DNA from: an uncultured Candidatus Saccharibacteria bacterium
Lineage (GTDB): Bacteria; Patescibacteriota; Doudnabacteria; UBA920
Direction: 5' to 3'
Length of the DNA stretch: 64,000 bases
NCBI GenBank assembly: GCA_964504715.1
Contig: CAZDEP010000001.1
Span: forward strand, 16,830 to 80,829
Shown here: positions 1,788 to 16,598 of the stretch, piece after piece
How the letters are laid out: each line of letters opens with the position of its first letter
How positions within the stretch are numbered: the first letter of the stretch is position 1
Notes under the pieces: generated by a model
Databases searched by the model: none
What the model was told of the DNA's origin: nothing
What the model saw: the letters and a program-made list of their open reading frames with translations, nothing else
Program-made: the position numbers and the translations under genes

Positions 1788-1800
1788 AAAAATTATTAAA

Positions 1801-1845
1801 AGGGTCATCCTTGCTAAAAGCAAGGATGACCCTTTTTTGTTTTTC
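1801..1845 (+). terminator. Rho-independent terminator (first of a tandem pair)
   Basis: Perfect hairpin agggtcatccttgc-taaaa-gcaaggatgaccct followed by tttttgttttt. Confidence 0.75.
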
Positions 1846-2035: not shown

Positions 2036-5000
2036 TTGAAAACGAAACTAAAAGCAAAAATTGTGAGATTTTTAGGACACTCAAGGCGCTTGAAATTGGC
2101 TTTTGCGTCTTTTTTGCTATTGGCCTCCCTTGTTCCTATTGGGGGTTTATTTAGCTCTGCGCCGGCTGCGCGGGCCCAAACCACCGCTGGTACCAGTCCC
2201 AATACGGTATTTAAGGCGGAAAATTTGGATATTTCAATAGGTACGGACCCGAGCGGCAACGGGGTAAAAAGCGAATATAGAGTGGTTGTAAACGAGCCTT
2301 TAAAAATAAAATATTACTTAAATTGGGGACCGAGCACCCAAAACGGCTATCCGGCTTTGGATTCTACAATAAATACCGAGCGCACGTCCGCGGCATTAAA
2401 AGGTTTTTACGCCGGTTTTAACTACGCGGACTTTGATATTCCCCGTTGTTACAGCTATGGCGGCAGCGCAAATTGCGTACTTAATGCGACCTCCAAGGTA
2501 AGTACGAGCCTGCCTGTTTTGGAAGGTATGGACGTGCCGTATGCCACTCTAATTAAGGACGGAAATTTTCCCTTAAAAAGCGCATCCTCAACGCCCGTGG
2601 GTGAACCTTTGGGCTCCAAAGGTTTTGCTGTTTTTCCAATTTTGAAACTGGATTCCAACATGGGCAGTAATGACTATGGCTTGAGCAAGAATCCGGCCAA
2701 GCTCATAGTCAAGGTTTATGCCAATGAAGCATCCAGAAAAGCGTCGTTTGACAAAGATGGACTGCAATATATAGCCGGTCAGCAGGAAACCGGCCAGGCG
2801 GTTAATGTTACGGCGCGCGGCAGGTCCAGCACCCAAGCCAGTTCCCTAACTTCGTTTTTAAACGATTTGTTTACGGGCATTGCGCAGTTTTTTATTGGAT
2901 TGACTTATGTAGTTTTCACCAAAGTCATATCTCCGCTTTTGGAAGGTTTGCTGTCCATAAGGGTCTATACGGACCAGTTTGTAAATGTTATTTATCCCGG
3001 CTGGGAAGTGTTGCGCAACGTGGTGAATATTTATTTTATAATTGCCATTATTGCCATAGCTTTGGGCACGCTGTTTAGGCTCGAATCCTACCAGGCCAAG
3101 CATTTGCTGGTGCAGCTGATTATTGCGGCTTTAACGGTTAACTTTAGTTTGGTTATTGGCCAGGCCATTTTGGGCGTTGCGGACACGGTGCAAAGCCAGT
3201 TTTTGCCCAACAGCAGTACAGTCATAAGAGACCTGGGTAAAAATTTAATGCCCGCGAACATTCAGGACATTGTAAACGCCAATCCGTTGACGCAGGACAG
3301 CTTTTTTGGCAGCGCCATTACCACGCTGTTTTTAATGTCTATGGCTGTGGGTTCGTTTTTGGTTTTTGCCGCGATTGCCATTTTTTTGATTATTAGAATT
3401 ATAATGCTTTGGATTCTGCTTATGGTTTCGCCTTTGGCGTATGCGGCGCGCGTTTTGCCTTCCACGCAAAGTTTAAGCGGCCAGTGGTGGGGGGAATTTT
3501 TAAAGTATGCGTTCTTTACGCCGGTTATGGCGTTCTTCCTGAATTTAACCGCCATAATTGCGGTGAAATATGAATTTGTATTTAGGGATATAAACTCGCG
3601 CGTGGTGGCCGGGGATCCGCAGCTTAAGGATTTAAGCACGCTGATTTTTGCCACGGCCAGCAACATTTTGCTGTTGGTATTTTTGGTTGCGGCCATTCAG
3701 GTTGCGGACAAGTTTGGCATATACGGAGCGAATGTCATAACCACCACAGTCAAAACCGGCATGTTCGCACCGTTTGCGGGCGCAGGCGGCGCGGCGGCTT
3801 TGGCGGGTAAAGGGGCGCAATGGTTAGGCGGGGACGTTGCGGGCGGATGGCTGCAAAAAAAATACAACAACTGGACCGCAGGTTTGGCGGAGGGTTCCAG
3901 GGGCAAAAAGATTGCTTACGGTATGTTGCACTTGCCCACATATTTTAAATCTCTTAGGAAAGATTCTGGGGAAGAGCTGGAAAGAAGCAAGTCCTTAACT
4001 TCCGCTGCCGCTTTGAGCATTAAAAGGCAGACGCCAGGTTTTAGGAGGCAAGGTGAAGACCCCTTGGCTTTGTATAACGAACACCAAGGCAAAGAACTTA
4101 TGGAAGAACGCAGGGGTGAAGCTTCAAGCAGTGAACAGGATGAAGTCCAGTTTGCAATGCAGCTATGGAGGAAAGCGCGTGATGGGGACAAAGACGCTCA
4201 ACTTATGTTGCCTGAACAATTGCGCCGCATGTTTAAGAACCACAACATGAATGAATTTGTGGAAAATTTTGGTGAAGAGTTTGATATGGAATTTACGGGT
4301 GGTAGGAAGCTTCAATATAAGGATTTGAGATATAACAAAAATAATCTCGGCGGCGTTTTGGACTACATGAAAGCGAATGGCGCGTTGTCCCACCACGTTC
4401 ATGAAGACTTCCAAAAACGTTTAGGTTCACTGGCCTATGATTCGAAAGATTTTACAGGTGCGGAAATGACTTGGACTGACGAACATGGCCATGCTCATAC
4501 CATAAAAAGGGAATACGATCCGGCAACTGTTAGTTTTAAGACGGTCGGCATTGAAGATTATAACGCATTACGAGATTTTGCCTCCTTGGAAATACATAAC
4601 CGGGGATTAGATGTCTTACCTTCTGACGACGAACGGACTGTTGCCAGGAAAACTCGGGAGGCAGGTAGGATTGTCCATGCAGTTGAGACAGGTGATAATA
4701 CTTATGGATATGGGGCCTTACAGTCTACATTTCGCAGTTCAGCTCAAGCACGAGCTTTGCATGGTGGAAATGGCTTTAATGCGGTGAATTATGAAAATGC
4801 AATGCATGATCAAACGAAGATTTTGGAGAAACAAATCAACTTAAGCAAGCAGAAAGGTATTCAACAATTGGATCAGTGGTGGGAATCTCAAATATCTAAA
4901 GATAGTGCCGGAAACACAGTTTTTGGCAGCTCTGGGAAATATACATTCACCCATTTAACTTCAGGTCACGAATATATTGCAGGCCGTGATGGCATGGCTG

Positions 5001-5308
5001 ATAGGGTTAAAGAATTTTATTTGCCTTTAGTGGTAAGAAAGCAGGCCCAACTGCGAGAAAATTTGAAGGATTCAGTTTTAGAAGAAGCTAGGGCAAAAGG
5101 CAGATATGTAGCTGATTTAGAAAGAGAGACTTCTGAGCAAGAATATAGAAATTTGCGTTTAGCATATATGGCTGTATTTAAAGATCCTAAACAGCTTGAT
5201 AATGCGGTAAGTGCGGCAGGAGGCCTGGGAGCCGGAACAAAAGCAGACTATGACAGGGTTGTCGCAAGTTTAAGGGCGGAGTTATCCAGGCCCGGGCTGG
5301 TTCCATAA
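2036..5308 (+). CDS. TrbL/VirB6-like polytopic membrane protein of a type IV secretion-like system. It has an N-terminal signal peptide and secreted domain, a central block of about 6-8 TM helices (roughly aa 280-560), and a ~530-aa C-terminal soluble domain.
   Basis: N-terminal signal-like segment LKLAFASFLLLASLVPIGGLFSSAPAARAQT. The long hydrophobic core resembles TrbL/VirB6 topology. Gene context also fits: a PrgI-like gene and VirB4 follow. Confidence 0.5.
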   Translation: MKTKLKAKIVRFLGHSRRLKLAFASFLLLASLVPIGGLFSSAPAARAQTTAGTSPNTVFKAENLDISIGTDPSGNGVKSEYRVVVNEPLKIKYYLNWGPSTQNGYPALDSTINTERTSAALKGFYAGFNYADFDIPRCYSYGGSANCVLNATSKVSTSLPVLEGMDVPYATLIKDGNFPLKSASSTPVGEPLGSKGFAVFPILKLDSNMGSNDYGLSKNPAKLIVKVYANEASRKASFDKDGLQYIAGQQETGQAVNVTARGRSSTQASSLTSFLNDLFTGIAQFFIGLTYVVFTKVISPLLEGLLSIRVYTDQFVNVIYPGWEVLRNVVNIYFIIAIIAIALGTLFRLESYQAKHLLVQLIIAALTVNFSLVIGQAILGVADTVQSQFLPNSSTVIRDLGKNLMPANIQDIVNANPLTQDSFFGSAITTLFLMSMAVGSFLVFAAIAIFLIIRIIMLWILLMVSPLAYAARVLPSTQSLSGQWWGEFLKYAFFTPVMAFFLNLTAIIAVKYEFVFRDINSRVVAGDPQLKDLSTLIFATASNILLLVFLVAAIQVADKFGIYGANVITTTVKTGMFAPFAGAGGAAALAGKGAQWLGGDVAGGWLQKKYNNWTAGLAEGSRGKKIAYGMLHLPTYFKSLRKDSGEELERSKSLTSAAALSIKRQTPGFRRQGEDPLALYNEHQGKELMEERRGEASSSEQDEVQFAMQLWRKARDGDKDAQLMLPEQLRRMFKNHNMNEFVENFGEEFDMEFTGGRKLQYKDLRYNKNNLGGVLDYMKANGALSHHVHEDFQKRLGSLAYDSKDFTGAEMTWTDEHGHAHTIKREYDPATVSFKTVGIEDYNALRDFASLEIHNRGLDVLPSDDERTVARKTREAGRIVHAVETGDNTYGYGALQSTFRSSAQARALHGGNGFNAVNYENAMHDQTKILEKQINLSKQKGIQQLDQWWESQISKDSAGNTVFGSSGKYTFTHLTSGHEYIAGRDGMADRVKEFYLPLVVRKQAQLRENLKDSVLEEARAKGRYVADLERETSEQEYRNLRLAYMAVFKDPKQLDNAVSAAGGLGAGTKADYDRVVASLRAELSRPGLVP

Positions 5309-5326
5309 GCTAACTTAATTTAAAAA

Positions 5327-6409
5327 ATGGTTTTAATTGAACTAAACAAAGTAAAAAATATTATAAATTCCAGCTCTTATCCTTTAGATTTAAAGGATAA
5401 GCTAATTTCAATTTTGCCCCATTTGGAAAAACATACTTTAACTGGTTTTGGAAAAGAATTGGACACGACGGATTCAAGCCTCGTTGCTAAATTATTGGCC
5501 ACTAAGTGGGAAGAATTCGGTGTTATTTTGGAAGGGGTTAAAAGGTTGGAGCAGGATTATTTTAATTCTTTTATGGCAAAATTGGAACAAGCAAGAAAAA
5601 GTCTTAAAGAGGAAGACAAAATTCATTTTTTATACCTAGTGTTGGATGTTAGGCCTTTAATATCTTCCGGGCAACAATCACCCCCCATAGACCAGTTGAA
5701 TAAAATACTTGATTATGAAATAAATTTATTTTGGCATTTGCCCAAATCTGAGGTTATATATTTGCTTCAAAATCATTTACTTTTTCTGGAATCCGAGGTC
5801 GATTTACTTAGGCATGTTCAGGCTGCGGTATGGGAAAATGATTGGGATTATACGAAAGACTTCGAAAAAACATTTTCGGATTGCATTCTCCACAATAAGG
5901 AAATTTTAGGGTCAAAAGAACCTCATAGTGTTTCAGATTGGATAAAGTTTTACTTTGAATCCGGTTTACAAAAAACCAATCAAATAAATACCATGCAGGT
6001 TGCGGAGTATTTATTCAAAAATCGACAAGTGCAAAGGTTGAGTGAGCGAGAAAAGAGAACTTTGTCGCAGGTACTAAAGCTCTTGGCGTGGCTGAAGGAT
6101 CCGCAACTCGACGAACTGGAAGTTTTAAAATATAGAGAGGGGTTGAGGAATGTGGAGGCAGAAGAACTGGAAGAAGGCATTATTTCACTAATGAGCCGCG
6201 AGCCTGAGGATAAAAAGTTACAAAATGTGGATTTCGTTGTAAAGAAAAAGAATTTAGAAGTTGAGGTAGTGCCCGGGCTGAATTGGGGGGATGTGAGTCC
6301 GCAGCCGGTTAGGAAATTGCCGCCGGTGCCGCCAAGGCCTTCGGTGGATATAGAAAAAAAGCTCGCGGAGTTGAAAAGCAAGGCGCAAAAAAACAGTAGC
6401 AGGCCGTGA
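5327..6409 (+). CDS. Hypothetical Leu-rich protein with a Pro-rich C-terminal tail, inside the T4SS-like cluster
   Basis: Intact 360-aa ORF immediately downstream of the VirB6-like gene; no recognised motif. Confidence 0.35.
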   Translation: MVLIELNKVKNIINSSSYPLDLKDKLISILPHLEKHTLTGFGKELDTTDSSLVAKLLATKWEEFGVILEGVKRLEQDYFNSFMAKLEQARKSLKEEDKIHFLYLVLDVRPLISSGQQSPPIDQLNKILDYEINLFWHLPKSEVIYLLQNHLLFLESEVDLLRHVQAAVWENDWDYTKDFEKTFSDCILHNKEILGSKEPHSVSDWIKFYFESGLQKTNQINTMQVAEYLFKNRQVQRLSEREKRTLSQVLKLLAWLKDPQLDELEVLKYREGLRNVEAEELEEGIISLMSREPEDKKLQNVDFVVKKKNLEVEVVPGLNWGDVSPQPVRKLPPVPPRPSVDIEKKLAELKSKAQKNSSRP

Positions 6410-6688
6410 GAAGCAGGAAGCAAGAAGTAAGTATTAAGAAATAAGAGAAAAGAGAGAAATAAATTTAAATGAAATCTTGGATACCCAAAGGGAAAAGCTT
6501 TAAATGGTATCACAAAAAGAAAAAGCCCCCGATGCGGACGAAACCGCATAAGGGTCTTTCTCATGGTGATATAGTTATTATAACAGGAAAAAGAAAGCTG
6601 TCAAGCCATACTTGAAATTCATAAAATATGCAGCAATTGGAAATCAACAAAATACACCCTGTGAAATAATTTCAAATTTTTTCTTGTT

Positions 6689-6943
6689 ATGTTCTATGTT
6701 TATGTTTTACTTTCGAATAAAGATCATAAATTATATATTGGTTATACTAAAAATTTGAAATTAAGATTTGAGCAGCACGGTAATGGTGAGGTTGAATCAA
6801 CTAAAAATCGCAGGCCGTTGATTTTAATTTATTACGAAGCATGTTTGAATAGATCCGATGCAACAAAACGCGAGAAGTATTTTAAAACACATTATGGCCA
6901 TATGTTTATCAAAAAAAGGCTCAAATCTTATTTCACGGGGTAA
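6689..6943 (+). CDS. GIY-YIG domain nuclease (small stand-alone UPF0213/YhbQ-like type)
   Basis: N-terminal YVYVLLSNKDHKLYIGYTKNLKLRFEQH is a classic GIY-YIG signature (GIY ... YIG spacing, downstream R and E/H); 84 aa. Confidence 0.7.
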   Translation: MFYVYVLLSNKDHKLYIGYTKNLKLRFEQHGNGEVESTKNRRPLILIYYEACLNRSDATKREKYFKTHYGHMFIKKRLKSYFTG

Positions 6944-6948
6944 AAATC

Positions 6949-8088
6949 ATGCAACAAGCTGAACTAAACAAAATTACACAATTAGTAAAAGAATCTTCTC
7001 TATTAAATCCCCAGGAGCGGGAAGAGTGGCTGACTTTAATGGGCTTGATGAATGACAAGCAGCTTTTGGAATTGGAGAAAATATTGGATAGTAACCGGCA
7101 AGCACCCATTGCCAAGCCGGCGCCTTTGGTGCCGCCTTTGGGCAGTTTAATTCCGGCAAAAACGCCCATTGTGCCTGAAAAAAAGGTGCCCGCACCGAAT
7201 TTTGCCGCGCCGAATTTGAGTCATATAGTCAATTTGCCCAAAGTTGGAGCCGTTTTTCCGCATCCCGTGGCGGCTATTGCCAAACCCGCGCCTAAGCTTG
7301 CTGAAAAACCCGCCTCAGCAAAGCCCCTTTCGGCCGGGAATGGTTTTTGGAGTAAAGTTAAGGACGTACTGGCGGAAAAAGAACTGCCTCCCGGGCATAA
7401 GGAACCAACCGAGGAGCTGGAGCTCATAGGCCCGCGGCCGCAAAAATTGCCCGCGCCCCTTCCGCCCAAAAAGCCCGGCGCGGAACCGACTAAAATATTT
7501 GCCCAAAATGTTTACATAAGCCCGTTGCCGCCGCAAAACCCCGCGCCGCACAAAGATTTAATTTTGCCCTCCCGAGGCCAAGTTGAACTTTCTGCAAAAA
7601 AGGTTTTGGAGCCAAAAGCCCAAACGCCTGAGCAGATCGACAAGCTGTTTGTTGCCGGCCTCAAGAATACCAAGGTTTTAATGGATGCCAAATTGGAAGC
7701 CGAACGCAAAAGATTGGCGCCAATTTTGCCTCCGGTCTTGGCGCCCAAAACCCCGGCCGGACAACTTCCAAAAATTTCCACCCCGTCATCACAGCCTGTA
7801 TTTTCCCTTACTAAAGTTGAAGATGTGGAACAGCTTAAAGGCGGCACTGTAAATTCCCAAGAAGCTTCCAAACTCGGTGATCAATTAAGGGATTTGGTGC
7901 GTATGTACGGTTACCACAAAGTGGTTTTCAGTCTGGAAAAAAGTCCGGCTTATAAAAGCTATATAAACACCGGTTTGGCAGCGCTTTCCGGAAAATACGA
8001 TTTCGGGCCAAACGGCAGTGGCGGCAAGTATATGAGCCGGGAAGAGTTTGAAAGCTTTGTGGACGTTTTAAGGAAAATGAAGGGTTAA
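6949..8088 (+). CDS. Hypothetical Pro/Ala/Lys-rich protein, low-complexity middle, structured N- and C-termini
   Basis: Intact 379-aa ORF; the middle has PAP/PKP-type repeats; no catalytic motif. Confidence 0.35.
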   Translation: MQQAELNKITQLVKESSLLNPQEREEWLTLMGLMNDKQLLELEKILDSNRQAPIAKPAPLVPPLGSLIPAKTPIVPEKKVPAPNFAAPNLSHIVNLPKVGAVFPHPVAAIAKPAPKLAEKPASAKPLSAGNGFWSKVKDVLAEKELPPGHKEPTEELELIGPRPQKLPAPLPPKKPGAEPTKIFAQNVYISPLPPQNPAPHKDLILPSRGQVELSAKKVLEPKAQTPEQIDKLFVAGLKNTKVLMDAKLEAERKRLAPILPPVLAPKTPAGQLPKISTPSSQPVFSLTKVEDVEQLKGGTVNSQEASKLGDQLRDLVRMYGYHKVVFSLEKSPAYKSYINTGLAALSGKYDFGPNGSGGKYMSREEFESFVDVLRKMKG

Positions 8089-8152
8089 GTTAGGGAGTAA
8101 AAATTTGGAATTTATTTAGGCATTAGGCCAGTTGGGAATTTTAGTCAAAGTA

Positions 8153-8173
8153 TTGAACTATCCATGGTATAAT
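8153..8173 (+). promoter_or_regulatory. Sigma70-like promoter (TTGAAC -35 and extended -10 TGGTATAAT) upstream of the PrgI-like gene
   Basis: ttgaac-tatccatgg-tataat about 25 nt upstream of the start codon at 8198 (spacer short, call driven by the extended -10). Confidence 0.45.
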
Positions 8174-8197
8174 TACATATATAGAGTAAGCGCATAA

Positions 8198-8650
8198 ATG
8201 CAATATCCGGTACCACAATTCACCGATGTAGAGGACAAGCTCATAGGGCCTTTGGGCGCTAAGCAGTTTTTTATTGTTTTCGCAGCGGGCATCCTTATTT
8301 TTGCCGGATATTCCGCCACCAAAAGCATAGTAGCTCTCATTTTGCTGATTGTAATTTTCGGCTTGCCGGCTTTGGGTCTGGCGTTTGCCAAAATCAACGG
8401 CAGGCCCGCTTACAGGCAGCTTGGCTTTTTAATGTCTTTTTTTACCGCGCCCAAAAAACTGATTTTCCATAAAGAAGCGGTAAATTTTTCCCAAGAGACC
8501 AAAATGAAGGACATAAAGCTGGAAACGCAAGATACGGGGCCGGTTGAATCAAAAGAAACCACCCAGCAAAGGCTAAAAACAGTCCAGGAGCTATTAAGGA
8601 AACAGCAGGAAGAGGAAGAGATGCTTATTGACAAAATTGACCATAATTAA
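8198..8650 (+). CDS. PrgI-family (VirB3-analogous) small membrane protein of Gram-positive-type T4SS
   Basis: N-terminus VPQFTDVEDKLIGPLGAKQFFIVFAAGILIF matches the PrgI consensus (vp.di..EDKi.GPLtlRQf), followed by two TM helices. It sits directly upstream of VirB4, as in conjugation operons. Confidence 0.6.
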   Translation: MQYPVPQFTDVEDKLIGPLGAKQFFIVFAAGILIFAGYSATKSIVALILLIVIFGLPALGLAFAKINGRPAYRQLGFLMSFFTAPKKLIFHKEAVNFSQETKMKDIKLETQDTGPVESKETTQQRLKTVQELLRKQQEEEEMLIDKIDHN

Positions 8651-8744
8651 AAAATTGACAAAATTATGAAGCAGAAAATTAAGTCCTAAAGCAAAAAGCA
8701 ATTTTGTCATTTATGTCAATTTTTTAAATTTTGTCAATATTTAT

Positions 8745-9431
8745 ATGGAAATGGAAAAGAAAAACAAAACCGCGGTAAAAAGCACCCAAAGTTTTTTGCG
8801 CCTCAGTGAAATAAAAAACGACACCGTGGTGGTGGACGACGGCACTTTAAGGGCCATAATTGCGGTTTCGTCCACAAATTTTGACTTAAAAAGCCAGGAC
8901 GAACAGGAAGCAATAATTTTTAATTACCAAAGATTTTTAAATTCCCTGGAGTTCCCGGTCCAAATTTTAATGCAGAGCCGCAAAATGGAAGTGGGGGCCT
9001 ACGTGGAAAAGCTCAAAAAGCTTTCGGAAAAGCAGACTAACGAGCTGTTAAGGGTGCAGACGGTGGAATATACGGAATTCATAAGCCGGCTAATAGAAAA
9101 CGCCAGCATTATGAACAAGAATTTTTATGTCATAGTGCCTTTGGGAAAAAGCATAACACCAAGCCCGGCTGGGATTTTTAGCCGGATATTTTTGGGCGGA
9201 AAAAGCAAGGAGGCCGCCGAAAGGATACAAAATTTTGAAAAAAACAGCGAAGAGCTTTCAACGAGGGTTGTTGCCGCCATTGGCGGGCTTTCCCAGGTGG
9301 GCCTAAAGGCTGTCCGCTTAAGGACGGAGGAAATTATCCAGCTTTATTATAATTCCTATAATTTTGAAAGCGGCCCCGTTATTGACCCTAAAAGCTTGGC
9401 CGAGATAAAACTGGCTGAGCCACAAAAATGA
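8745..9431 (+). CDS. virB4: VirB4/TrbE-family ATPase, N-terminal fragment (aa 1 to about 228); the rest of the gene resumes at 9921 after an inserted element
   Basis: TVVVDDGTLRAIIAVSSTNFDLKSQDEQEAIIFNYQRFLNSLEFPVQILMQSRKMEV is the canonical VirB4/CagE N-terminal motif (lkdGslraiievsginfdL.seeEqe.ii..fq.fLnsLdfpiQi...sr). The ORF stops about 20 bp before the element's left TIR. Confidence 0.65.
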   Translation: MEMEKKNKTAVKSTQSFLRLSEIKNDTVVVDDGTLRAIIAVSSTNFDLKSQDEQEAIIFNYQRFLNSLEFPVQILMQSRKMEVGAYVEKLKKLSEKQTNELLRVQTVEYTEFISRLIENASIMNKNFYVIVPLGKSITPSPAGIFSRIFLGGKSKEAAERIQNFEKNSEELSTRVVAAIGGLSQVGLKAVRLRTEEIIQLYYNSYNFESGPVIDPKSLAEIKLAEPQK

Positions 9432-9450
9432 ATAGTGAAGTAAGAATTAT

Positions 9451-9910
9451 TCAGATCTGCAGATGGGCGGATTTTACAGATACCTACAGATTTTAAAAGA
9501 TAAAGCTTATGGAAAAAAATGAATTCCTGTACGGTGACGAGACTTATAAATTAAGGGGACTGCTTTTTTCTGTTCATAACGAACTTGGCAGGTTTGCCAA
9601 AGAAAAACAATATTGCGACAAAGCCGAGGAAAAGTTTATCATTAACCAGTGGCCACATGTTAGAGAACCCCAAATCGGAGATATTGGTGATAGACCGGAT
9701 TTTATAGTCTGGGACTTAATTGTTGTTGAGTTTAAAGCAAAACCGTATTCGCAACAATCAGATTTTGAGCAGGTGCAACGTTATTTGCAGCAGACTAAAT
9801 TGAAATTAGGCATACTGGTAAATTTTAGGGCAAAATATTTGAATCCCCAAAGAATTTTGAATATTAATCATCTGCAGGTATCTGTAAAATCTAAAGATCT
9901 GTAGATCGGA
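9451..9910 (+). mobile_element. Element of about 460 bp, bounded by ~33-bp terminal inverted repeats, carrying a GxxExxY-family ORF and inserted into the VirB4 gene
   Basis: Left end is acagatgggcggattttacagatacctacagat. Right end is atctgcaggtatctgtaaaatctaaagatctgtagatcgg, the reverse complement of the left end with a few mismatches. A cargo-less copy of the same ends abuts at 37296-37392. Confidence 0.6.
9509..9904 (+). CDS. GxxExxY-family protein (PD-(D/E)XK nuclease-like fold), cargo of the inserted element
   Basis: LLFSVHNELGRFAKEKQY resembles the family motif (..v..eLGpGflEsvYe..). The spacing here is GxxxxExxY, so the match is a variant. The ORF's C-terminal codons lie inside the right terminal inverted repeat. 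Confidence 0.5.
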   Translation: MEKNEFLYGDETYKLRGLLFSVHNELGRFAKEKQYCDKAEEKFIINQWPHVREPQIGDIGDRPDFIVWDLIVVEFKAKPYSQQSDFEQVQRYLQQTKLKLGILVNFRAKYLNPQRILNINHLQVSVKSKDL

Positions 9911-9920
9911 ATAAAATATC

Positions 9921-11765
9921 TTGAGTATTTTTAAAGCAAAAACCGAAGAAGAGTTGCAGGCCAAAAAAGCCCGGCTCGAGGAGATGGAGCAGGAAAGCAA
10001 TGCGGGCAGGCGGCTTAAGGAAGTGGAAAAAACTTACCGCGAAGGGCTGACGACTCTAAAAGATTTAATAGCGCCCGCGGCTTTGAATTTCCAGGGCTCC
10101 CATTTTGAGCTGAACGGAAAATTTGCCCGTACGTTTTTTGTGCTTGCGTACCCGCGTTTTTTGTCCAGCAATTGGCTGTCGTTTATTATAAACGCGGAAG
10201 GCGCGCTGGACGTTTCTATTTTTATTTACCCCATAAATTCGGAAACCATTTTAAAGAAGCTTAAATCCAAAGTCGGCGAAATTGGTTCGCAAATGGCCAT
10301 TAACCAGGAAAAAGGCATGGTCAGGGACCCTATGCTCGAAACCGCTTACAAAGACGTGGAGTCTTTGCGCGATTCGCTGGTGCAAGGCACGGAACGCTAT
10401 TTTAGGGTAGGAATTTATTTTACGGTTTACGCCGAAGATTTAAAGCAGCTGGAAGCATTTTCCACTTCGCTTGAGAGCTCTTTGGGTTCCAAATTAATTG
10501 TTACCAAGCGGGCAATAATGCAAACCCAAGCCGGCCTGAATTCCTCTTTGCCTTTGGGGTTGGACGAACTTGATGTCGGCAATAACATGAATACCGGGCC
10601 ACTTTCCACGACTTTTCCGTTTGTGTCTTCGGACGTAACTTCCAACGACGGCATATTGTACGGCATTAACCGCCATAACAACAGCTTAATTTTGTTTGAC
10701 CGGTTTGCCATGGAAAACGCCAACAGCGTGGTTTTTGCCAAGTCCGGCGCCGGCAAATCTTACGCCATTAAGCTGGAAATTTTAAGGAGCTTAATGGTGG
10801 GCACGGAGGTCATAGTTATTGACCCGGAAAACGAGTACAAACATTTGGCCGAAGCCGTGGGCGGCACCTATTTAAACGTTTCTTTAAACAGCAACTCCCG
10901 AATCAATCCTTTTGATATTCCCGTGGGCCTGGAGGGCGAGGACAATACCGACATTATGCGCACCGCCGTGGTAAACCTTTTGGGGTTGGCGAATTTGATG
11001 GTCGGGAAATTAAATCCGACCGAAGAAGCGCTTTTGGACAAGGCCATTTGGCAAACCTATGCCAAAAAAGACATAACCCCCGAGCTGGCGGATTTTAAGA
11101 GCATTGAACCTCCGACCATGAACGACCTTTTGGAAATTTTGGCCGGCACGGTGGGCGCGGAGAATTTGGCCCAGCGGTTTTCTAAATTCACGGAAGGCAC
11201 TTTTGCGGGACTGTTTAACCAGCCGACCAATGTGGTTTTAAACAACTTGCTGGTGGTTTTTTCCATTAGGGATTTGGAAGAAGAATTGAGGCCCATCGCC
11301 ATGTATATAATCCTAAATTATATATGGAATATTGTCAGAAGCGAATTAAAAAGAAGGATTATGGTAATTGACGAAGCCTGGATCCTTATGCAGCACGAGG
11401 ACAGCGCCCGTTTCCTGTTTGGCATAGCCAAAAGGGCCCGCAAATATTATTTGGGCCTGACAACCATTACGCAAGATGTGGTGGATTTCATGAACAGCCC
11501 TTACGGCAAGCCGATTGTTACTAACTCTTCCATCCAATTGCTTTTAAAACAGTCACCGGCTGCCATTAACGTAATTGCCGAAACTTTCTTTTTAACCGAA
11601 GGCGAAAAATACCTGCTTTTGGAAAGCGAAGTGGGCGAGGGGATTTTCTTTGCGGGCAACAAGCACGCGGCAATTAAAATTTATGCCTCCTACGTCGAAG
11701 ACCAAATTATAACCACGGACCCGAAGCAGTTATTAGAGATAAAAGAAAGCCAGGAAACAGTTTAA
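9921..11765 (+). CDS. virB4: VirB4/TrbE-family T4SS ATPase, remaining ~614 aa: middle domain plus C-terminal AAA+ ATPase
   Basis: LKDLIAPAALNFQGSHFELNGKFARTFFVLAYPRFLSSNWLSFIINAEGALDVSIFIYP matches the VirB4 middle-domain consensus. Walker A is FAKSGAGKSYAIK, Walker B is RIMVIDEAW. The track's first codon is TTG. Confidence 0.85.
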   Translation: MSIFKAKTEEELQAKKARLEEMEQESNAGRRLKEVEKTYREGLTTLKDLIAPAALNFQGSHFELNGKFARTFFVLAYPRFLSSNWLSFIINAEGALDVSIFIYPINSETILKKLKSKVGEIGSQMAINQEKGMVRDPMLETAYKDVESLRDSLVQGTERYFRVGIYFTVYAEDLKQLEAFSTSLESSLGSKLIVTKRAIMQTQAGLNSSLPLGLDELDVGNNMNTGPLSTTFPFVSSDVTSNDGILYGINRHNNSLILFDRFAMENANSVVFAKSGAGKSYAIKLEILRSLMVGTEVIVIDPENEYKHLAEAVGGTYLNVSLNSNSRINPFDIPVGLEGEDNTDIMRTAVVNLLGLANLMVGKLNPTEEALLDKAIWQTYAKKDITPELADFKSIEPPTMNDLLEILAGTVGAENLAQRFSKFTEGTFAGLFNQPTNVVLNNLLVVFSIRDLEEELRPIAMYIILNYIWNIVRSELKRRIMVIDEAWILMQHEDSARFLFGIAKRARKYYLGLTTITQDVVDFMNSPYGKPIVTNSSIQLLLKQSPAAINVIAETFFLTEGEKYLLLESEVGEGIFFAGNKHAAIKIYASYVEDQIITTDPKQLLEIKESQETV

Positions 11766-11770
11766 TTCTA

Positions 11771-11860
11771 TTGACATAATTGACAAAATTTAAATAATTG
11801 ACAAGATTGGGATTCGAAATTTTGCTCAATTTTGTTCAATTATGTCATTTTTGTCAATTT
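11771..11860. promoter_or_regulatory. Dyad-symmetric array of TTGACA-like repeats (about 3 forward, 4 reverse) upstream of the 970-aa gene
   Basis: ttgacataattgacaaaatttaaataattgacaag ... tttgctcaattttgttcaattatgtcatttttgtcaattttt. Similar arrays are at 8655-8740, 55519-55560 and 60705-60750. Confidence 0.45.
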
Positions 11861-11864
11861 TTTT

Positions 11865-14744
11865 ATGGCCGACGATAATAAACCAACAGGCTCAGCAGGC
11901 GTGGCGGAAGAAGCGCCGGCAAAAAAACCGGACGATGCGCCCAAACAGCGTCCGCTTTCAGGCAGGCCGCTAATTATTCAGTTTGGCATACCGATCCCGG
12001 GCGTGGGCGCGGTAATTAACGGTGTTTCCATAGACAATTTTCCCGCCCAGGGCACCCAGGCGGAAATAAACGGCGGGTCTTTTATCAGCCTCGTAGGGAT
12101 CGGCTTGGACAGGTTTGACGACGAATATTGGCGGCTGGAAAGGCAGGGGAAAAAACCTGTGGAGTTGAAAGTTGTGTCCGCAGGCACGGGCGGCGAAGGG
12201 AAAAATTCTTTGAGGGGGAGGTGGGTAACTTTGCAGGTGCCCCGCTCCGAAGTTTCGGGCCTTAATCCCAATGAAAGTTTAGGCCTTAGCTTTTTTAGCA
12301 GCCGGATTGGGGGCAAGTTGCGCACCTTGCCAATGGTTTTTGTTTTTAAATCTGACTCTAGCCAGACCCAGGCAGCGCAGACTGTTTCCAATGCGCCCCA
12401 AATCCCGGTACAGCCCGGTAACATGGGCCCGGGCAATTTATCGGCAAACGGCGGGGCCGGAGTTTTTTCTGGGGCTGAATTGGGCGGACAGGTAATAGGC
12501 GGGGCCGCAAAAGCCGCTGCCGGGGCTTTTTCCGCGGGCGCTGGAGACAAACCCGCATCCGGCCCAATAAAAGCATCAGGCACCTTAAAATCTATGAGCA
12601 CGACGGCCTCTGCTGCTCTGGGCGGCGTCCAGGCGGACTTAGATGGGGGCGGCGGGGAAGTTTCTGTTTCAGAAACCGTAAAAACCACGGGCGCCGCGTT
12701 GCCTCAAACAGTAAAGCAAAGCGTGGAGGTTATAGGCGAGCATTTGGACAAAACCCCCGAGCTTATTGTAAATGCCAACGTCAGGCAAAAAATTTCTTCG
12801 GCGTTAAAAAGCGGTAATCTGTCTTCCTTAAGCGCGGAAGAAAAACAAACTTTAAATACAACCCTAAAGACTGTTACCGAAGGCGGTGGGCAGGTTTCGG
12901 CACAAGTTCAGGCCGCAGCGGGCATTATTTTAAACAGTGAAATAACCGGGGAGGCGCAAGTTAAGGCGCAAGGGCGCGCATCAACCACGGACGAAGCCCC
13001 TGTTAAGCAAACCATGCCAGCCGAAGCTGAAGAATCTGTCCAAGCCCAAACAGCTCCCTCGGCCCAGCCCAAAACCCAATCAATGAGTTTGGGCCAAAGC
13101 CTGCAAGCTACAGGGGAATTTTTGCAAAAAAATAATATCATTCCTAACTTTAAAGGCAGTCGCGGGCGAATTTTACAAGCTTTGGCCAACGGAAAAATTA
13201 ACGAACTTTCCGAAGACGACAGGGAAGTTTTGGCCGGCGCTTTAAAGTCGGCCAAATCGCAAGCGCCGGCCTCACTGCAAGCGTCTTTAAATAAAACAGC
13301 CCAAGCGGTAGCTACAGGACCCAAGGCCGAGGCAAATATTTCCAAGCCGTCGGAAATTAAAGAGACCGCGCTTAAAGCGAGCGCGCCTTTGTCGGTTAAG
13401 CGGGAGTTTGACGCGAAAATCGCGCAAATGAATACTGCGGGGCGTAAAGTTGATGCCGCGGTTTTGGGCAAAAGGCCCGAAGGCGCCGATGAAATAAATT
13501 TAAGCCGGGGAAAAGACATTAAAGTTAGGGAAAAAGAAAAGGCTGAAGAATCCGTCAAAGAAGGCGCAGAAGGGGCGGAAATAGGAACGCAATCTCCGCA
13601 GGAAGGCGAATTATCCAGGCAGGAAGGTATGCCCGAGGAAAAAATTTCCCCGGTTCTTCCCATGCCGCCGGCCGCTCCGGAAAAAACCGAAGAAGAAAAA
13701 GACGAGCCTAATTCAAAATCAGGTATCAAACGCAAGCCCGAAGAAAAATCCGGCGAAAACAATCCGGAGGAGCTAAGCCAGGACGAACAAAACCGTTTGG
13801 CGGAATTGGAAGAACAGCAGGCGCGGCTGCAAAATCAGGAAAGGCTTAAAGCCGTAAAAGAACAACAAGAGCAAAGTCTCGCCCGGCAGGCCGCGGAAAA
13901 AGAGGCAAACGCCGCTCTAAACGCTGTTTTAATGAAAGGCATTATGGCAGTCTGGCTTGCCGCCGTCGAAACTTTGGGACTTTCAATTTTAGTGGGCGCT
14001 TTGGCGGGAGATGTAATTTGGATTTTTAAAGGGTGGATTTTAAAAAAATTTGAATCTGGCAGAAACATTTTAAACAAATTTCATGGCGGAAAAAATGCGG
14101 GGCACTTAAAAATAGAGTTAAGCGGGAAAGTAAAGTTGAATATTATTGCCATGAACCTGGCAGTAGTGGCGGTAATTATTTTTTTGGCGGGCATACTCTT
14201 TGCGGCTATTAGGTTTGGTTGCAAAACTTATTTGCTGAGGGGCGATTATTGCGCAGTAATTAACAATATGGATTTTGAGTCGTTTAAGTCTTATATTACT
14301 GTGCCAACTGTCCCGGCGGCGCCCGTTGGGGGCGTATGCAGCCCGGTTCCGGCCGGCGTGGCCAGCCCTTCGGCTTTGGCTGGCACTTGCTTTGGGCAAA
14401 ACGCTTCCGCGGCTTCCATGATAGCCGCGGCGGAAAGCGGGGGAGACCCGGGCAAGGCAAGCCGCGTGGATATTTGTACGGTGGACAACAGCGTGGTTTC
14501 CTGGGGCCTGTTCCAAATAAATTTAAGCGCGCATAAAATCGGCAGCCTGGATTGCCCCAAAGCTTTTAGCAAAATGTATACCGGCAGCAGCAAAGACTGC
14601 CGCGTGGTGGACCAGGCGCTGTACCAACTGTGTGTTAAGGCCGCTACCGCTCCCGACTCTCAAATCCAAACCGCCTGCGCAATTTCCGGCAACGGCAGCA
14701 ACTGGAACGCTTGGCTGAATACTAAAAATAAATGCGGACTTTAA
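11865..14744 (+). CDS. Giant T4SS-associated protein. It has a ~190-aa N-terminal domain, a ~500-aa Ala/Gln/Lys/Glu-rich disordered linker, two hydrophobic helices, and a C-terminal lytic transglycosylase (SLT/VirB1-like) domain.
   Basis: C-terminal ...AAAESGGDPGKASRVDICTVDNSVVSWGLFQINL carries the SLT catalytic Glu-Ser and the GLxQ(I/V) motif at the expected spacing. Hydrophobic helices are at about aa 690-715 and 750-775. The ATG at 11865 is preferred over the upstream TTG. Confidence 0.6.
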   Translation: MADDNKPTGSAGVAEEAPAKKPDDAPKQRPLSGRPLIIQFGIPIPGVGAVINGVSIDNFPAQGTQAEINGGSFISLVGIGLDRFDDEYWRLERQGKKPVELKVVSAGTGGEGKNSLRGRWVTLQVPRSEVSGLNPNESLGLSFFSSRIGGKLRTLPMVFVFKSDSSQTQAAQTVSNAPQIPVQPGNMGPGNLSANGGAGVFSGAELGGQVIGGAAKAAAGAFSAGAGDKPASGPIKASGTLKSMSTTASAALGGVQADLDGGGGEVSVSETVKTTGAALPQTVKQSVEVIGEHLDKTPELIVNANVRQKISSALKSGNLSSLSAEEKQTLNTTLKTVTEGGGQVSAQVQAAAGIILNSEITGEAQVKAQGRASTTDEAPVKQTMPAEAEESVQAQTAPSAQPKTQSMSLGQSLQATGEFLQKNNIIPNFKGSRGRILQALANGKINELSEDDREVLAGALKSAKSQAPASLQASLNKTAQAVATGPKAEANISKPSEIKETALKASAPLSVKREFDAKIAQMNTAGRKVDAAVLGKRPEGADEINLSRGKDIKVREKEKAEESVKEGAEGAEIGTQSPQEGELSRQEGMPEEKISPVLPMPPAAPEKTEEEKDEPNSKSGIKRKPEEKSGENNPEELSQDEQNRLAELEEQQARLQNQERLKAVKEQQEQSLARQAAEKEANAALNAVLMKGIMAVWLAAVETLGLSILVGALAGDVIWIFKGWILKKFESGRNILNKFHGGKNAGHLKIELSGKVKLNIIAMNLAVVAVIIFLAGILFAAIRFGCKTYLLRGDYCAVINNMDFESFKSYITVPTVPAAPVGGVCSPVPAGVASPSALAGTCFGQNASAASMIAAAESGGDPGKASRVDICTVDNSVVSWGLFQINLSAHKIGSLDCPKAFSKMYTGSSKDCRVVDQALYQLCVKAATAPDSQIQTACAISGNGSNWNAWLNTKNKCGL

Positions 14745-14865
14745 GCATAGCCCGACTTACGCGCTTGACCTTGCGGGCTACCTACATTAAATAAAAGTTG
14801 GGATCAACATTTGTTTTTCAATATTGGTGACAAGTATGAATAATTAAATTGCAAGCAATAAAAAT

Positions 14866-15315
14866 ATGAAAAAATATCTGATATTTTTTGGAATACCCAT
14901 GGTATTGCTGCTTTTGGTTTACAGTTTTTATTCCGCTTTTAAAAACAGTTCCGGTCCCAATGGCACAAACGGTGAGACCTTGGAGCTTTCAAGCACACAA
15001 GGGCCGCCCGTTACCGTTAAGAATTTTCTAAAATCCCCGGTCCAGAATTTAAGCTATGGCGCAGTGATTGCCGAAACTCCGGACTATAAAATAATTTATT
15101 TTTCCGAGGACGAAGGTATAATTATTACCCTAAAATCTACCCCCTTAGGCTACGCCCAAGTGGAAGCGGAAGGCGAATTGCTTGTTAAATTGGGCATTTT
15201 AAGGACCCAGGCATGCAGTTTAAAGGTATTTATTACCGTGCCTATGGACGTGAGCGCGGAGGCTGCGGGCAAAAATTACCCTTTAAGCTTTTGCACAGGC
15301 GGAAAAGTTTTATAA
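14866..15315 (+). CDS. Small secreted or membrane-anchored hypothetical protein
   Basis: N-terminal hydrophobic segment LIFFGIPMVLLLLVYSFYSAF; 149 aa; no motif. Confidence 0.35.
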   Translation: MKKYLIFFGIPMVLLLLVYSFYSAFKNSSGPNGTNGETLELSSTQGPPVTVKNFLKSPVQNLSYGAVIAETPDYKIIYFSEDEGIIITLKSTPLGYAQVEAEGELLVKLGILRTQACSLKVFITVPMDVSAEAAGKNYPLSFCTGGKVL

Positions 15316-15325
15316 TTTAAAATTT

Positions 15326-15336
15326 TGTGGTATAAT
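15326..15336 (+). promoter_or_regulatory. Extended -10 TGTGGTATAAT upstream of the beta-propeller gene
   Basis: Exact tgtggtataat about 50 nt upstream of the ATG at 15390. Confidence 0.45.
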
Positions 15337-15389
15337 AAATTAACAGATTAAGCCTGAATATTGAAAATTAAAATAAATATTTAACAGGG

Positions 15390-16598
15390 ATGAATAAAAA
15401 AGCAATTATTATATTGGGCGCCATATTCTTTTTGATTATTGGCACCTTGGGTTTTTTGGTTTATTCTAAATATAGTGGCTCCGGCAGCCAAAAAACGGCA
15501 GAAACGCCGGGCAATACAGCAGATCAAAATGCCACCACCACAGTAGACACCAACACGGACGTTTCGGGTAATCCGGACGGCCAAAACCCAAACCCCAACG
15601 CAGGCAATAAATTTTTCAGGCTGACCGAATCGGACCAGATTATTTCGCCCGTCCTTTTTTATAACGGCAACGGTATAACTTATTTGAATTCCAAGGGCGA
15701 ATTAATTAAGAGCGACTTTGAAACCGGCCTCGACGGTTCGGTTTCTTTAACCCGCACCCGAAGCCTGGCCATTCCGCTTAAAAGCGGCATAGAAAAAGTC
15801 TTGTGGCCCAAAAATGGCGACGATTTTATTGCCCAAATTTCCACTGAAAGCGCGGCTTTCAGTTATTTTAATTTCCAGGCGGGAAGTTATAGCGATTTGC
15901 CCACACAGGTAAAAGCGGTGGAGTGGCTGCCGGGCGGCGACAAAATTTTGTTTATATGGGTGGACAAAGACTCAAGCGGCCAGGAAAAAGCCACTTTAAA
16001 TACGGCCAAGCCCGACACTTCCGAATATTCGCAAGTCGCCGAACTTTACGAGACTGATGATGCCATCCATCTTTCTCCCGACGGCTTAAACTTGCTTTTT
16101 TACCGTACCCAAAATTCGGGCGGTACCAATAAAATTATTTTGACCGACCCGCAGGGCAAAGTTTGGAAAGATTTGGTGGCAACGGGATATAATTACGGCG
16201 TGTTGTGGAGCCCGGACAGCCAGAAGTTTATATTTGCAAAAAAAGCGCCACAGGCCCAAGGTTACCAGCTTTGGTATTATGACTTGTATACCGGCGAAAC
16301 CAAGAACTTAGGCCTAGGCGGCCTGCCCCAAAAAGCGGTGTGGGCGGGAGACAGCCGGAGCGTGTACGTGGCCGCGCCCAAAGACGGCACGCCGATTATG
16401 GATGCCTCTGACTTAAACAGCCGTTTTACCACAGACAAGTTTTACAAAATTGACACTTCCACTTTGGAAAAAGTTGAGTATGACCCGGGGAGTATGAATA
16501 TTGACGGCCGGGAAATGTTCCTAAATCCGGGTGAAAACAAGCTGTTTTTTAAAAACGCCCAGGATGGAGGGTTGTACTACTTGGACTTAACCCAATAG
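15390..16598 (+). CDS. Membrane-anchored PD40/TolB-like beta-propeller repeat protein
   Basis: N-terminal TM helix, then repeated (L/W)SPDG/SPDS..(L/I)(F/L) segments (LSPDGLNLLFY, WSPDSQKFIFA) typical of PD40 WD40-like repeats. Confidence 0.5.
   Translation: MNKKAIIILGAIFFLIIGTLGFLVYSKYSGSGSQKTAETPGNTADQNATTTVDTNTDVSGNPDGQNPNPNAGNKFFRLTESDQIISPVLFYNGNGITYLNSKGELIKSDFETGLDGSVSLTRTRSLAIPLKSGIEKVLWPKNGDDFIAQISTESAAFSYFNFQAGSYSDLPTQVKAVEWLPGGDKILFIWVDKDSSGQEKATLNTAKPDTSEYSQVAELYETDDAIHLSPDGLNLLFYRTQNSGGTNKIILTDPQGKVWKDLVATGYNYGVLWSPDSQKFIFAKKAPQAQGYQLWYYDLYTGETKNLGLGGLPQKAVWAGDSRSVYVAAPKDGTPIMDASDLNSRFTTDKFYKIDTSTLEKVEYDPGSMNIDGREMFLNPGENKLFFKNAQDGGLYYLDLTQ

Follow-up and report, generated by a model that had tools for sequence, protein, structure and literature searches.

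A probable Patescibacteria-clade type IV secretion system, fixed in the chromosome, with two small cassettes between its genes

Type IV secretion systems (T4SSs) of the Patescibacteria were described by Wang et al. 2023 (PMC10633639) and Quinonero-Coronel et al. 2025 (PMC12102498), and have been reviewed as a new T4SS group (PMC12857230). In Southlakia epibionticum, a cultured Saccharibacterium in which the system is encoded by genes SEML1_0006-0019, transposon sequencing (Tn-seq) showed it to be essential (PMC10633639). Their function has been described as unknown, the proposals being effector delivery and the acquisition of nucleic acids or nucleotides (PMC11665869; bioRxiv 10.64898/2026.06.21.733656). 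Few machines have been demonstrated to be essential for the epibiotic life of these bacteria, and the T4SS is one of them. Here, we analyzed a 64-kb stretch of DNA (contig CAZDEP010000001.1, positions 16,830 to 80,829; hereafter, the window) together with 8 kb upstream of it. We describe a T4SS gene cluster that we read, with a probability of roughly 0.85, as a chromosomally fixed, non-conjugative T4SS of the Patescibacteria clade, descended from the mating-pair formation class FATA (MPF-FATA) conjugation machines of monoderm bacteria and residing in a Doudnabacteria-type genome.

The cluster shares with the described Patescibacteria systems its chromosomal location, a monoderm-type VirB4 ATPase, a separate TrsD-like gene directly upstream of virB4, PrgI/VirB3 and VirB6 proteins, and a wall hydrolase encoded after virB4, with no relaxase or coupling protein nearby. 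The same component set, likewise with no relaxase, was reported in the 2025 survey, which also describes, for class ABY1, the neighborhood of radA, recG and comF that is found here, and in which the coupling protein gene, t4cp, usually lies far from virB4 (PMC12102498). Because its components and chromosomal location match the Patescibacteria T4SS, as does the missing relaxase, the locus is a correct identification of a known system and not a discovery, and it leaves existing knowledge of that system unchanged. An earlier reading made from the DNA letters alone (the sequence-only reading) had proposed a Gram-positive-type T4SS module here, and this is supported by VirB4, PrgI, VirB6 at the level of its family, and the SLT_3 domain of the hydrolase. 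In contrast to the described systems, no VirB2-like pilin array was recognized in the window or the 8 kb upstream (such an array is frequent, not universal), VirB6 is extended to 1090 aa, SLT_3 stands at the C-terminus of a mostly low-complexity protein of ~960 aa, the partner proteins o1, o379, a 149-aa protein and a PD40 protein were previously undescribed, and two cassettes lie in the spacers. The presence of two small selfish cassettes between T4SS genes is the new detail of this locus, which also adds a well-resolved Doudnabacteria example with a set of conserved, unannotated partners as candidates for interaction with the core.

With the MPF-FATA T4SSs of Firmicutes (pGO1/pSK41 Trs, CTn2 CD1110 and pCF10 Prg), the locus has in common a VirB4 that passes the CD1110 cutoff, a VirB3 of the PrgI type, a division between TrsD and ATPase that resembles pGO1, and a wall hydrolase gene adjoining the ATPase gene. 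Unlike them, it is chromosomally fixed and not on a mobile element, its hydrolase has SLT only and no CHAP, and the cluster contains no relaxase, VirD4/TcpA or PrgB-type adhesin and no VirB8-like PrgL/TraM recognizable by sequence. ComB of Helicobacter pylori and the archaeal Ced system are DNA importers with a VirB4-family protein as their sole ATPase. The locus resembles both in having a VirB4-family protein as sole ATPase in the window, no relaxase or coupling protein, and a chromosomal location. However, this likeness is functional and the homology only generic (CedB, 38 bits against a cutoff of 700; CedD, 19 against 600), the outer-membrane VirB7/9/10 parts of ComB were not found here, and no CedA-like protein was identified.

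For this analysis, 39 open reading frames (ORFs) of the window were scanned against Pfam, and NCBIfam and Rfam scans were also run. All ORFs listed in the sequence-only reading were found on the plus strand where it had placed them, and every substantial ORF between positions 6 and 18073 is on that strand (Table 1). Its PrgI-like protein, Pro-rich protein, GIY-YIG nuclease and PD40 propeller were confirmed, as was its small secreted protein, which is a small protein with an N-terminal anchor. The hidden Markov model (HMM) scans, which it had recommended against Pfam and TIGRFAM and which were run against Pfam and NCBIfam, placed PrgI and VirB4 above their cutoffs and the TrbL match of the VirB6-like protein below. 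An assembly artefact is excluded by the identical DNA that three other sequencing runs had yielded independently. We fetched 80 genome loci through VirB4 and then mapped the window proteins onto them, 83 loci being searched in all; locus counts for the outer genes of the cluster are limited by contig ends. The gene order o1 - VirB6-like - (o360) - o379 - PrgI - TrsD - VirB4 - variable large protein - (149-aa) - PD40 - RadA was kept in approximately 80 loci named Doudnabacteria or Patescibacteria, the cluster being present in all of the ~80 relatives fetched, and ~60 loci had the same neighbors on the radA side. None of the outcomes that the sequence-only reading had named as refuting it was seen. 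Component identity, conservation and chromosomal context are what the analysis shows directly.

Table 1. Features of the T4SS locus and its neighborhood, in window coordinates.
Feature	Position	Strand	Remarks
o1 (P0149), secreted	6-1787	+	3' 593 codons of a 629-aa protein
Bidirectional terminator-like hairpin	1798-1836		Follows o1; stem of 18 bp with a T run behind it
Extended VirB6/TrbL-like polytopic membrane protein	2036-5308	+	1090 aa; TrbL match weak, family-level support
o360	5327-6409	+	360 aa; no hydrophobic segment, no family match
GIY-YIG cassette	6623-6943	+	84-aa GIY-YIG ORF at 6689-6943
o379, Pro-rich, T4SS-linked, lineage-restricted	6949-8088	+	AF2, profile search
PrgI/VirB3-like small membrane protein	8198-8650	+	PF12666
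TrsD-like protein	8745-9431	+	228 aa; VirB4 N-domain homologue as a separate gene
GxxExxY / PD-(D/E)XK cassette resembling an intervening sequence	9447-9914	+	131-aa ORF at 9509-9904
VirB4 ATPase	9921-11765	+	614 aa; conju_CD1110, P-loop_TraG, PDB 4AG5
Structured spacer	11766-11864	+	Three direct ATTGACA facing inverted copies; one long hairpin
Membrane-anchored protein with SLT_3	11865-14744	+	~960 aa; the 970-aa ORF is 11832-14744
Anchored or secreted protein with conserved Cys pair	14866-15315	+	149 aa; N-terminal anchor
PD40 (TolB-like) beta-propeller, N-terminally anchored	15390-16598	+	PD40 E 3.3e-6
RadA/Sms recombination protein	16745-18073	+	Pfam; follows the PD40 gene in 58 loci
recG	22652-24721	-	Pfam
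comF-like gene (Pribosyltran and double zinc ribbon)	28661-29398	-	Pfam

The VirB4 ATPase matched the NCBIfam family conju_CD1110 of Firmicute conjugative elements above its cutoff (E 3e-107, 359.7 bits, cutoff 325) as well as Pfam P-loop_TraG (E 1.3e-25), its closest solved structure was the C-domain of Thermoanaerobacter VirB4 (4AG5, E 2e-45), and its Walker A (AKSGAGKS) and Walker B (VIDEAW) motifs are intact. It was present in 83 of the 83 loci, at a median identity of 77%, and across most of them at 74-96% with intact Walker motifs. The sequence-only reading had assigned the whole of 8745-11765 to a single VirB4. A VirB4 ATPase does lie within this interval and accounts for its VirB4-family match above cutoff, but the interval holds three genes (8745-9431, 9509-9904 and 9921-11765), the second of which, a nuclease gene of the GxxExxY type, had been overlooked. 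The first encodes the TrsD-like protein, which matched VirB4_plasma (positions 93-233), TrsD (E 6.7e-6) and CD1110 (positions 9-121) of NCBIfam, all below cutoff, and carries a precomputed Pfam match to TraC-like PF26593. The CD1110 profile is shared out between the two proteins, positions 9-121 falling on the TrsD-like protein and positions 157-730 on the 614-aa VirB4.

The TrsD-like gene was found adjoining virB4 in 78 loci (median identity 64%). In a previous survey of 3,035 Patescibacteria genomes, no T4SS component was more abundant than TrsD homologues, 1,664 of them adjoining virB4 (PMC12102498). When TrsD and VirB4 were joined into one query, 7,459 proteins were returned. The best 120 of these aligned to the ATPase part only, at 79-100% identity, and had no N-domain; most were 612-622 aa long and a minority longer, and they came from Patescibacteria or Doudnabacteria wherever the source names the organism. 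In relatives that have no insert at this place, the gap between trsD and virB4 is 2-30 bp, and in a relative of 1.2 Mb (L003) it is 6 bp with nothing between. Because 612-622 aa is the norm among the homologues and the insert-free relatives have two adjacent genes, separate genes for TrsD (~228 aa) and VirB4 (~615 aa) are, as far as these comparisons can tell, the ancestral and normal Patescibacteria arrangement and not damage.

The two other membrane components of the core lie upstream. In the VirB6-like protein we found the features noted in the sequence-only reading, namely a signal-peptide-like N-terminus and a transmembrane (TM) block at about nt 2843-3835 (hydrophobic at about aa 280-565 by hydropathy); the N-terminal domain between them, of ~230 aa, is predicted to be extramembranous, and a hydrophilic C-terminal domain of ~470 aa follows. 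TrbL was matched by 21 of 27 homologous TM blocks (best 5.9e-7), which supports the VirB6 assignment at the level of the family. The sole PDB match of the family profile was TrwI, the VirB6 of R388, at a non-significant E of 0.017, and no PDB relative was found for the C-terminal domain. The gene was present in 54 loci. PrgI, present in 74 loci, matched PF12666 above the Pfam cutoff (E 4.8e-9, 37.1 bits, cutoff 27) and has a hydrophobic stretch at aa 15-68 which, by hydropathy, is long enough for two TM helices.

The protein encoded directly after virB4 had been described as a 970-aa protein with an SLT domain (ES...GLFQIN). The domain was found as described; the start of the gene is probably the ATG at 11865, since 11766-11864 is a structured spacer, and this shortens the protein to ~960 aa. 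Its N-terminal ~690 aa are hypervariable and of low complexity, and hydropathy placed hydrophobic segments at aa 694-737 and 765-800 (numbering of the 970-aa ORF). The C-terminal lysozyme-like SLT_3 domain, which is VirB1-like, spans nt 14388-14714. It scored 22.5 bits within the whole protein and 29.7 bits when the C-terminal 138 aa were used alone (cutoff 27), and SLT_3 was matched by 9 of 10 homologues (best 6.7e-11). A Glu-Ser pair, the GLFQIN motif and eight Cys were invariant in the alignment of the domain, and neither single-sequence nor profile searches found relatives of it among solved structures. These results support a putative lytic transglycosylase or lysozyme-like assignment, with a predicted catalytic Glu, that rests on Pfam SLT_3. 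Among 60 relatives' proteins encoded directly after virB4, 8 matched SLT_3, 5 matched SLT, 1 matched Peptidase_M15/VanY and the rest had no Pfam domain; the hydrolase domain is thus an optional part of this protein, and what is near-universal is a membrane anchor followed by a C-x9-C motif.

Two further observations concern these 60 proteins. The C-x9-C motif stands just past the last TM segment (~14187-14219 in the window, aa 786-796 of the 959-aa protein) and is nearly invariant, and the N-terminal parts are 250-1200 aa long, hypervariable and of low complexity. The 149-aa protein encoded next had no Pfam match. Its homologues occurred in exactly nine of the fetched loci, those whose large protein keeps an SLT-type C-terminus, which suggests that it forms a pair with the SLT domain as a candidate hydrolase partner or inhibitor, or that the two share ancestry. 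In 62 loci, the PD40 gene stands between the gene for the variable protein and radA; its product is linked to the cluster, with a putative part in the system, and RadA is a conserved neighbor.

In agreement with the sequence-only reading, Pfam scans recognized no relaxase, VirD4 or pilin in the window. Relaxase and VirD4 were absent among the 39 ORFs, and no VirB2-like pilin was found in the window's small membrane ORFs or in two proteins of 147 and 251 aa encoded upstream, even at E<=1, a search that divergent pilins could escape. The cluster might instead be the transfer module of an integrated conjugative element (ICE) or the decaying remnant of one, given that VirB4, PrgI and TrsD have homologues encoded on conjugative plasmids and ICEs of Firmicutes and that small nuclease genes lie inside the cluster. 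We consider this very unlikely. Approximately 80 genomes have the cluster at the same chromosomal position with the same housekeeping neighbors, VirB4 is conserved across most loci at the identities given above with its Walker motifs intact, no integrase was found in addition to the absence of relaxase and coupling protein, and the GC content of the cluster (0.40-0.52) is inside the range of the rest of the window. The nuclease genes, for their part, belong to separate cassettes that are missing from the closest relative. It is even less probable that the GxxExxY insertion, which places ~490 bp between the N-domain-like ORF and the ATPase ORF, broke VirB4, so that a pseudogene was left or RNA splicing is needed. 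TrsD and VirB4 were already two genes ancestrally, separated by the short gap seen where no insert is present; the insert is confined to the spacer, 16 nt past the trsD stop and 7 nt ahead of the virB4 start; and no intron model matched at the insert (Rfam). Fusion of 8745-11765 by an alternative genetic code, a frameshift or an intron was ruled out by the 615-aa norm, the insert-free relatives and the lack of an Rfam intron.

In the assembly that we infer for this Patescibacteria-type T4SS, the lysozyme-like domain of the post-virB4 protein would open the cell wall locally, and the extended VirB6-like protein would form the membrane channel. PrgI/VirB3, the TrsD-like protein and a VirB4 hexamer would sit at the cytoplasmic face of the channel and supply the energy, and o1, the 149-aa protein and the PD40 propeller, which are secreted or anchored, would be lineage-specific accessories together with a cytoplasmic o379. 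As for direction and substrate, which we likewise infer, we lean toward nucleic acid, most likely taken up from the host or the surroundings, with protein export to the host nearly as likely. This leaning comes from VirB4 being the only ATPase recognized in the window, as in ComB and Ced, and from the neighboring radA, recG and comF-like genes. If the apparatus is instead a protein exporter that places effectors, adhesins or hydrolases on or in a host bacterium, as T4SS effector translocators do, it would have nothing to do with nucleic acids. This is quite possible, although somewhat short of probable: the window contains neither a relaxase nor a coupling protein, the cluster encodes several secreted or anchored proteins with no assigned function, a gene for a secreted LCAT-like lipase follows radA, and Wang et al. 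favor export or 'an alternative capacity' (PMC10633639). However, no effector-like signal or cargo gene was identifiable, and the radA, recG and comF-like neighbors point to nucleic acid. The characterized protein exporters that have no coupling protein (Ptl and Brucella VirB) keep a VirB11 ATPase. Unlike in these, no VirB11 was seen here.

Several points weigh against a nucleic-acid-transporting Patescibacteria T4SS, or against parts of this reading. The VirB6-like protein alone matched Pfam TrbL below the cutoff (E 4.5e-4, 20.5 bits, cutoff 25.9), a peptidoglycan hydrolase domain is recognizable in only ~14 of the 60 relatives, and no VirB8-like (PrgL/TraM/TcpC, NTF2-like) component had a sequence match in the cluster, the only bitopic candidates being the 149-aa and 251-aa proteins. 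A VirD4 or a pilin array could possibly lie elsewhere in the genome, outside the 64-kb window and the 8 kb upstream of it. The linkage to radA may be frozen synteny, and the sequence gives no direct sign of direction or substrate. Deletion of comEC in S. epibionticum ended transformation and kept viability, while the T4SS was still essential (PMC11665869; PMC12857230), so that classical transformation is not the sole role of the T4SS. For Patescibacteria systems, unlike ComB and Ced, an uptake role is so far a proposal (PMC11665869; bioRxiv 10.64898/2026.06.21.733656).

Two small nuclease genes inside the cluster, of the GxxExxY and GIY-YIG types, are recent insertions, into the trsD/virB4 and o360/o379 spacers, respectively. 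The closest relative, L087, whose VirB4 is 96% identical, has the same gene order and neither of these genes. The empty-site spacers of L087 are too diverged to give the exact insertion boundaries at nucleotide resolution. The GxxExxY cassette, which is missing from L003 as well, is bounded by imperfect terminal inverted repeats of 45 nt that are 82% complementary (9447-9491 and 9870-9914), and the minimum-free-energy fold of its RNA closes with a terminal stem of ~40 bp (z -3.7). Its ORF matched PDDEXK_3 (E 3.5e-14, 53.6 bits) and TIGR04256 (48.9 bits, cutoff 35). No Rfam family and no intron was found for the cassette, and there is no rRNA in the window. The ORF of the second cassette matched GIY-YIG of Pfam at E 6.4e-16, and homologues of this gene were found in 5 loci only. 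The GIY-YIG gene is bounded by inverted repeats of 14 nt (6656-6669 and 6928-6941), ahead of which stands a degenerate copy, 31 nt long, of the o379 start (6623-6653), and the corresponding spacer in L087 is 29 bp. A perfect sigma-70 consensus (12/12; TTGACA-16-TATAAT with TG) was also observed at 6577-6604 on the minus strand, in the spacer that received the GIY-YIG gene and reading antisense into o360.

We measured the cassette spacers in the fetched relatives, leaving out duplicates of the window and one duplicate locus. The trsD/virB4 and prgI/trsD spacers were bimodal in length, at either <250 bp or about 420-590 bp. The long spacers contained one co-oriented ORF of ~90-140 aa, which was PDDEXK_3, the four-helix-bundle 23S_rRNA_IVP (PF05635) or GIY-YIG, and different ORF families filled the same spacer in different genomes. 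The PD-(D/E)XK cassettes were collected with a non-iterated HMM at E<=1e-2 (19 hits); an iterated profile drifted into RecG, owing to three loci in which the cassette ORF and the recG frame are continuous, and was discarded. In total, 53 cassette genes were found in 33 of the 80 loci, within cassettes of ~0.3-0.5 kb, and 48 of the 53 were on the operon strand. Within 3.5 kb upstream of virB4, a region that makes up 18% of the sequence, lay 42 of the 53 (binomial p 6e-22, shared ancestry ignored). Terminal inverted repeats exceeded those of every shuffle in 19 of 24 cassettes examined, and the arms are built from short sub-repeats such as CAGAT, CGGAT and CGAAT. When metagenomes were scanned with the arm sequence, another relative proved to have this cassette at the same site, and two ORF-less hairpins, described below, were also found.

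The closest described counterparts of these cassettes are the ORF-bearing intervening sequences (IVSs) of 23S rRNA, such as that of Coxiella burnetii, which is 428 nt long and carries an S23p ORF (PMC4990558). The cassettes resemble them in size, the filled spacers measuring 423-588 bp, and in having a long terminal inverted-repeat stem around one small ORF, and the 23S_rRNA_IVP family PF05635 is itself among the ORFs of relatives' cassettes. In contrast to the IVSs, the cassettes lie between protein genes of an operon and not inside rRNA, and those of the window carry PD-(D/E)XK (GxxExxY) and GIY-YIG ORFs. No description of such cassettes between protein genes was found in the searchable literature. 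We tentatively propose, as an idea that may well prove wrong, that a single type of mobile cassette, bounded by hairpins and IVS-like in anatomy, carries the GxxExxY, four-helix-bundle 23S_rRNA_IVP and GIY-YIG genes as cargo. In Doudnabacteria, such cassettes would repeatedly colonize, and be swapped in, the spacers of prgI-trsD-virB4, the best-conserved block of the operon, and would have ORF-less miniatures elsewhere, their stems being predicted RNase III sites at which the polycistronic T4SS transcript would be cut between cistrons. If the cassette observation holds, it would extend selfish elements of the 'intervening sequence' kind from rRNA to protein-coding operons and offer a natural marker for DNA that uncultivated lineages have recently exchanged.

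Related structures were also seen outside these spacers. Three relatives have a GxxExxY ORF immediately ahead of recG (L018:18641-21172; L027:13173-15152; L021:10558-12525, minus strand) that is continuous with the recG frame in stop-to-stop translation, which points to the 5' side of recG as a further target of the cassette. Two hairpins of ~75 nt with the arms of the GxxExxY cassette and no ORF (L092:7541-7614 and L090:4170-4243) look like miniature derivatives of it. The cluster proteins of the window were not found in L092 or L090, and the hairpin of L092 lies between the gene for a membrane protein and another unrelated gene.

Three proteins of the cluster, o1, o360 and o379, had no family assignment and may be accessory parts of the T4SS. 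Structure prediction with AlphaFold2 (AF2), followed by Foldseek searches of the PDB at a match threshold of E<=1e-3, was applied to two of them, o1 and o379. The first ORF of the window had been reported as having no assignable function. This holds with respect to families (no Pfam or NCBIfam match), although the ORF is truncated by the window edge, as the full-length protein is longer (Table 1); a full-length homologue carries a signal peptide, and o1 was found upstream of the VirB6-like gene in 28 loci. The AF2 model of o1 was of low confidence (predicted local distance difference test, pLDDT, 62.8; predicted template modeling score, pTM, 0.27), with long helices and a confident C-terminal Ig-like beta-sandwich at aa 503-600, for which Foldseek found only generic Ig-like domains and nothing at the threshold. 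Upstream of the window, co-directional genes for membrane proteins of 147 and 251 aa precede o1 (L084:6965-8210), the second overlapping the o1 start; neither protein had a Pfam match. Because these two co-directional genes stand ahead of o1, one of them overlapping it, the cluster probably starts ~1.2 kb before the window.

That the 360-aa and 379-aa ORFs have no assignable function also held, as neither had a family match in Pfam or NCBIfam and o379 had no structural match. o379 was present upstream of prgI in 57 loci. It consists of an N-terminal three-helix domain (pLDDT >90 for aa 1-50), a disordered Pro-rich linker of ~240 aa with the conserved short motifs LSHIxNLPK and EKELPPGHPE, and a C-terminal helical domain (pLDDT 84-95 for aa 290-379). 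A profile search of 1.84 billion representative proteins returned 478 relatives (50%-identity clusters), essentially all of them full-length matches; the o379 family is real, lineage-restricted and of modest size. The PDB gave neither a fold match nor a sequence match for it, Foldseek returning generic three-helix bundles only. o360 was found in 13 loci only, and it had no detectable relatives elsewhere. The idea that o360 and o379 are paralogues with a common N-terminal domain was unsupported (hhalign probability 6.6%).

The cluster is flanked upstream by KsgA, followed by the two small membrane proteins that precede o1, and downstream by the LCAT-like lipase, RecG, a sigma factor, the comF-like gene, ClpB, SecA, GatA/B, MiaA, MreB, PBP2 and L1. 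The recG and comF-like genes are no more than 12 kb away from the T4SS and radA; this is the ABY1 neighborhood of the 2025 survey, yet the nearest named relatives here are Doudnabacteria. The lipase gene, at 18537-21440 just after radA, encodes a protein of 967 aa that has an LCAT/lipase domain and a hydrophobic N-terminus resembling a signal peptide. The protein is also present in L087, but in only 2 of the 80 genome loci, and is a candidate host-membrane-active enzyme.

Putative signals and structures were also seen in the spacers of the cluster. A promoter-like site at 1953-1982 (TTGGAA-18-TATAAT with TG), together with the terminator-like hairpin after o1, parts o1 from the core genes. The spacer after virB4 gave an RNA fold with a z of -6.2 and contains a promoter-like TTGACA-16-AATAAT, and the spacer at 8622-8744 likewise has direct ATTGACA against inverted copies in one long hairpin (z -3.6). 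The sequence TTTTGTCAA occurs 11 times in the window versus 1.7 expected. The view that such long spacer hairpins are specific to the T4SS was rejected, as the control spacer between PD40 and RadA proved no less structured (median z -4.1). In relatives, the hairpins at these places are built from other sub-repeats (TTAACG, GCTAA), and spacer hairpins are a general property of these genomes.

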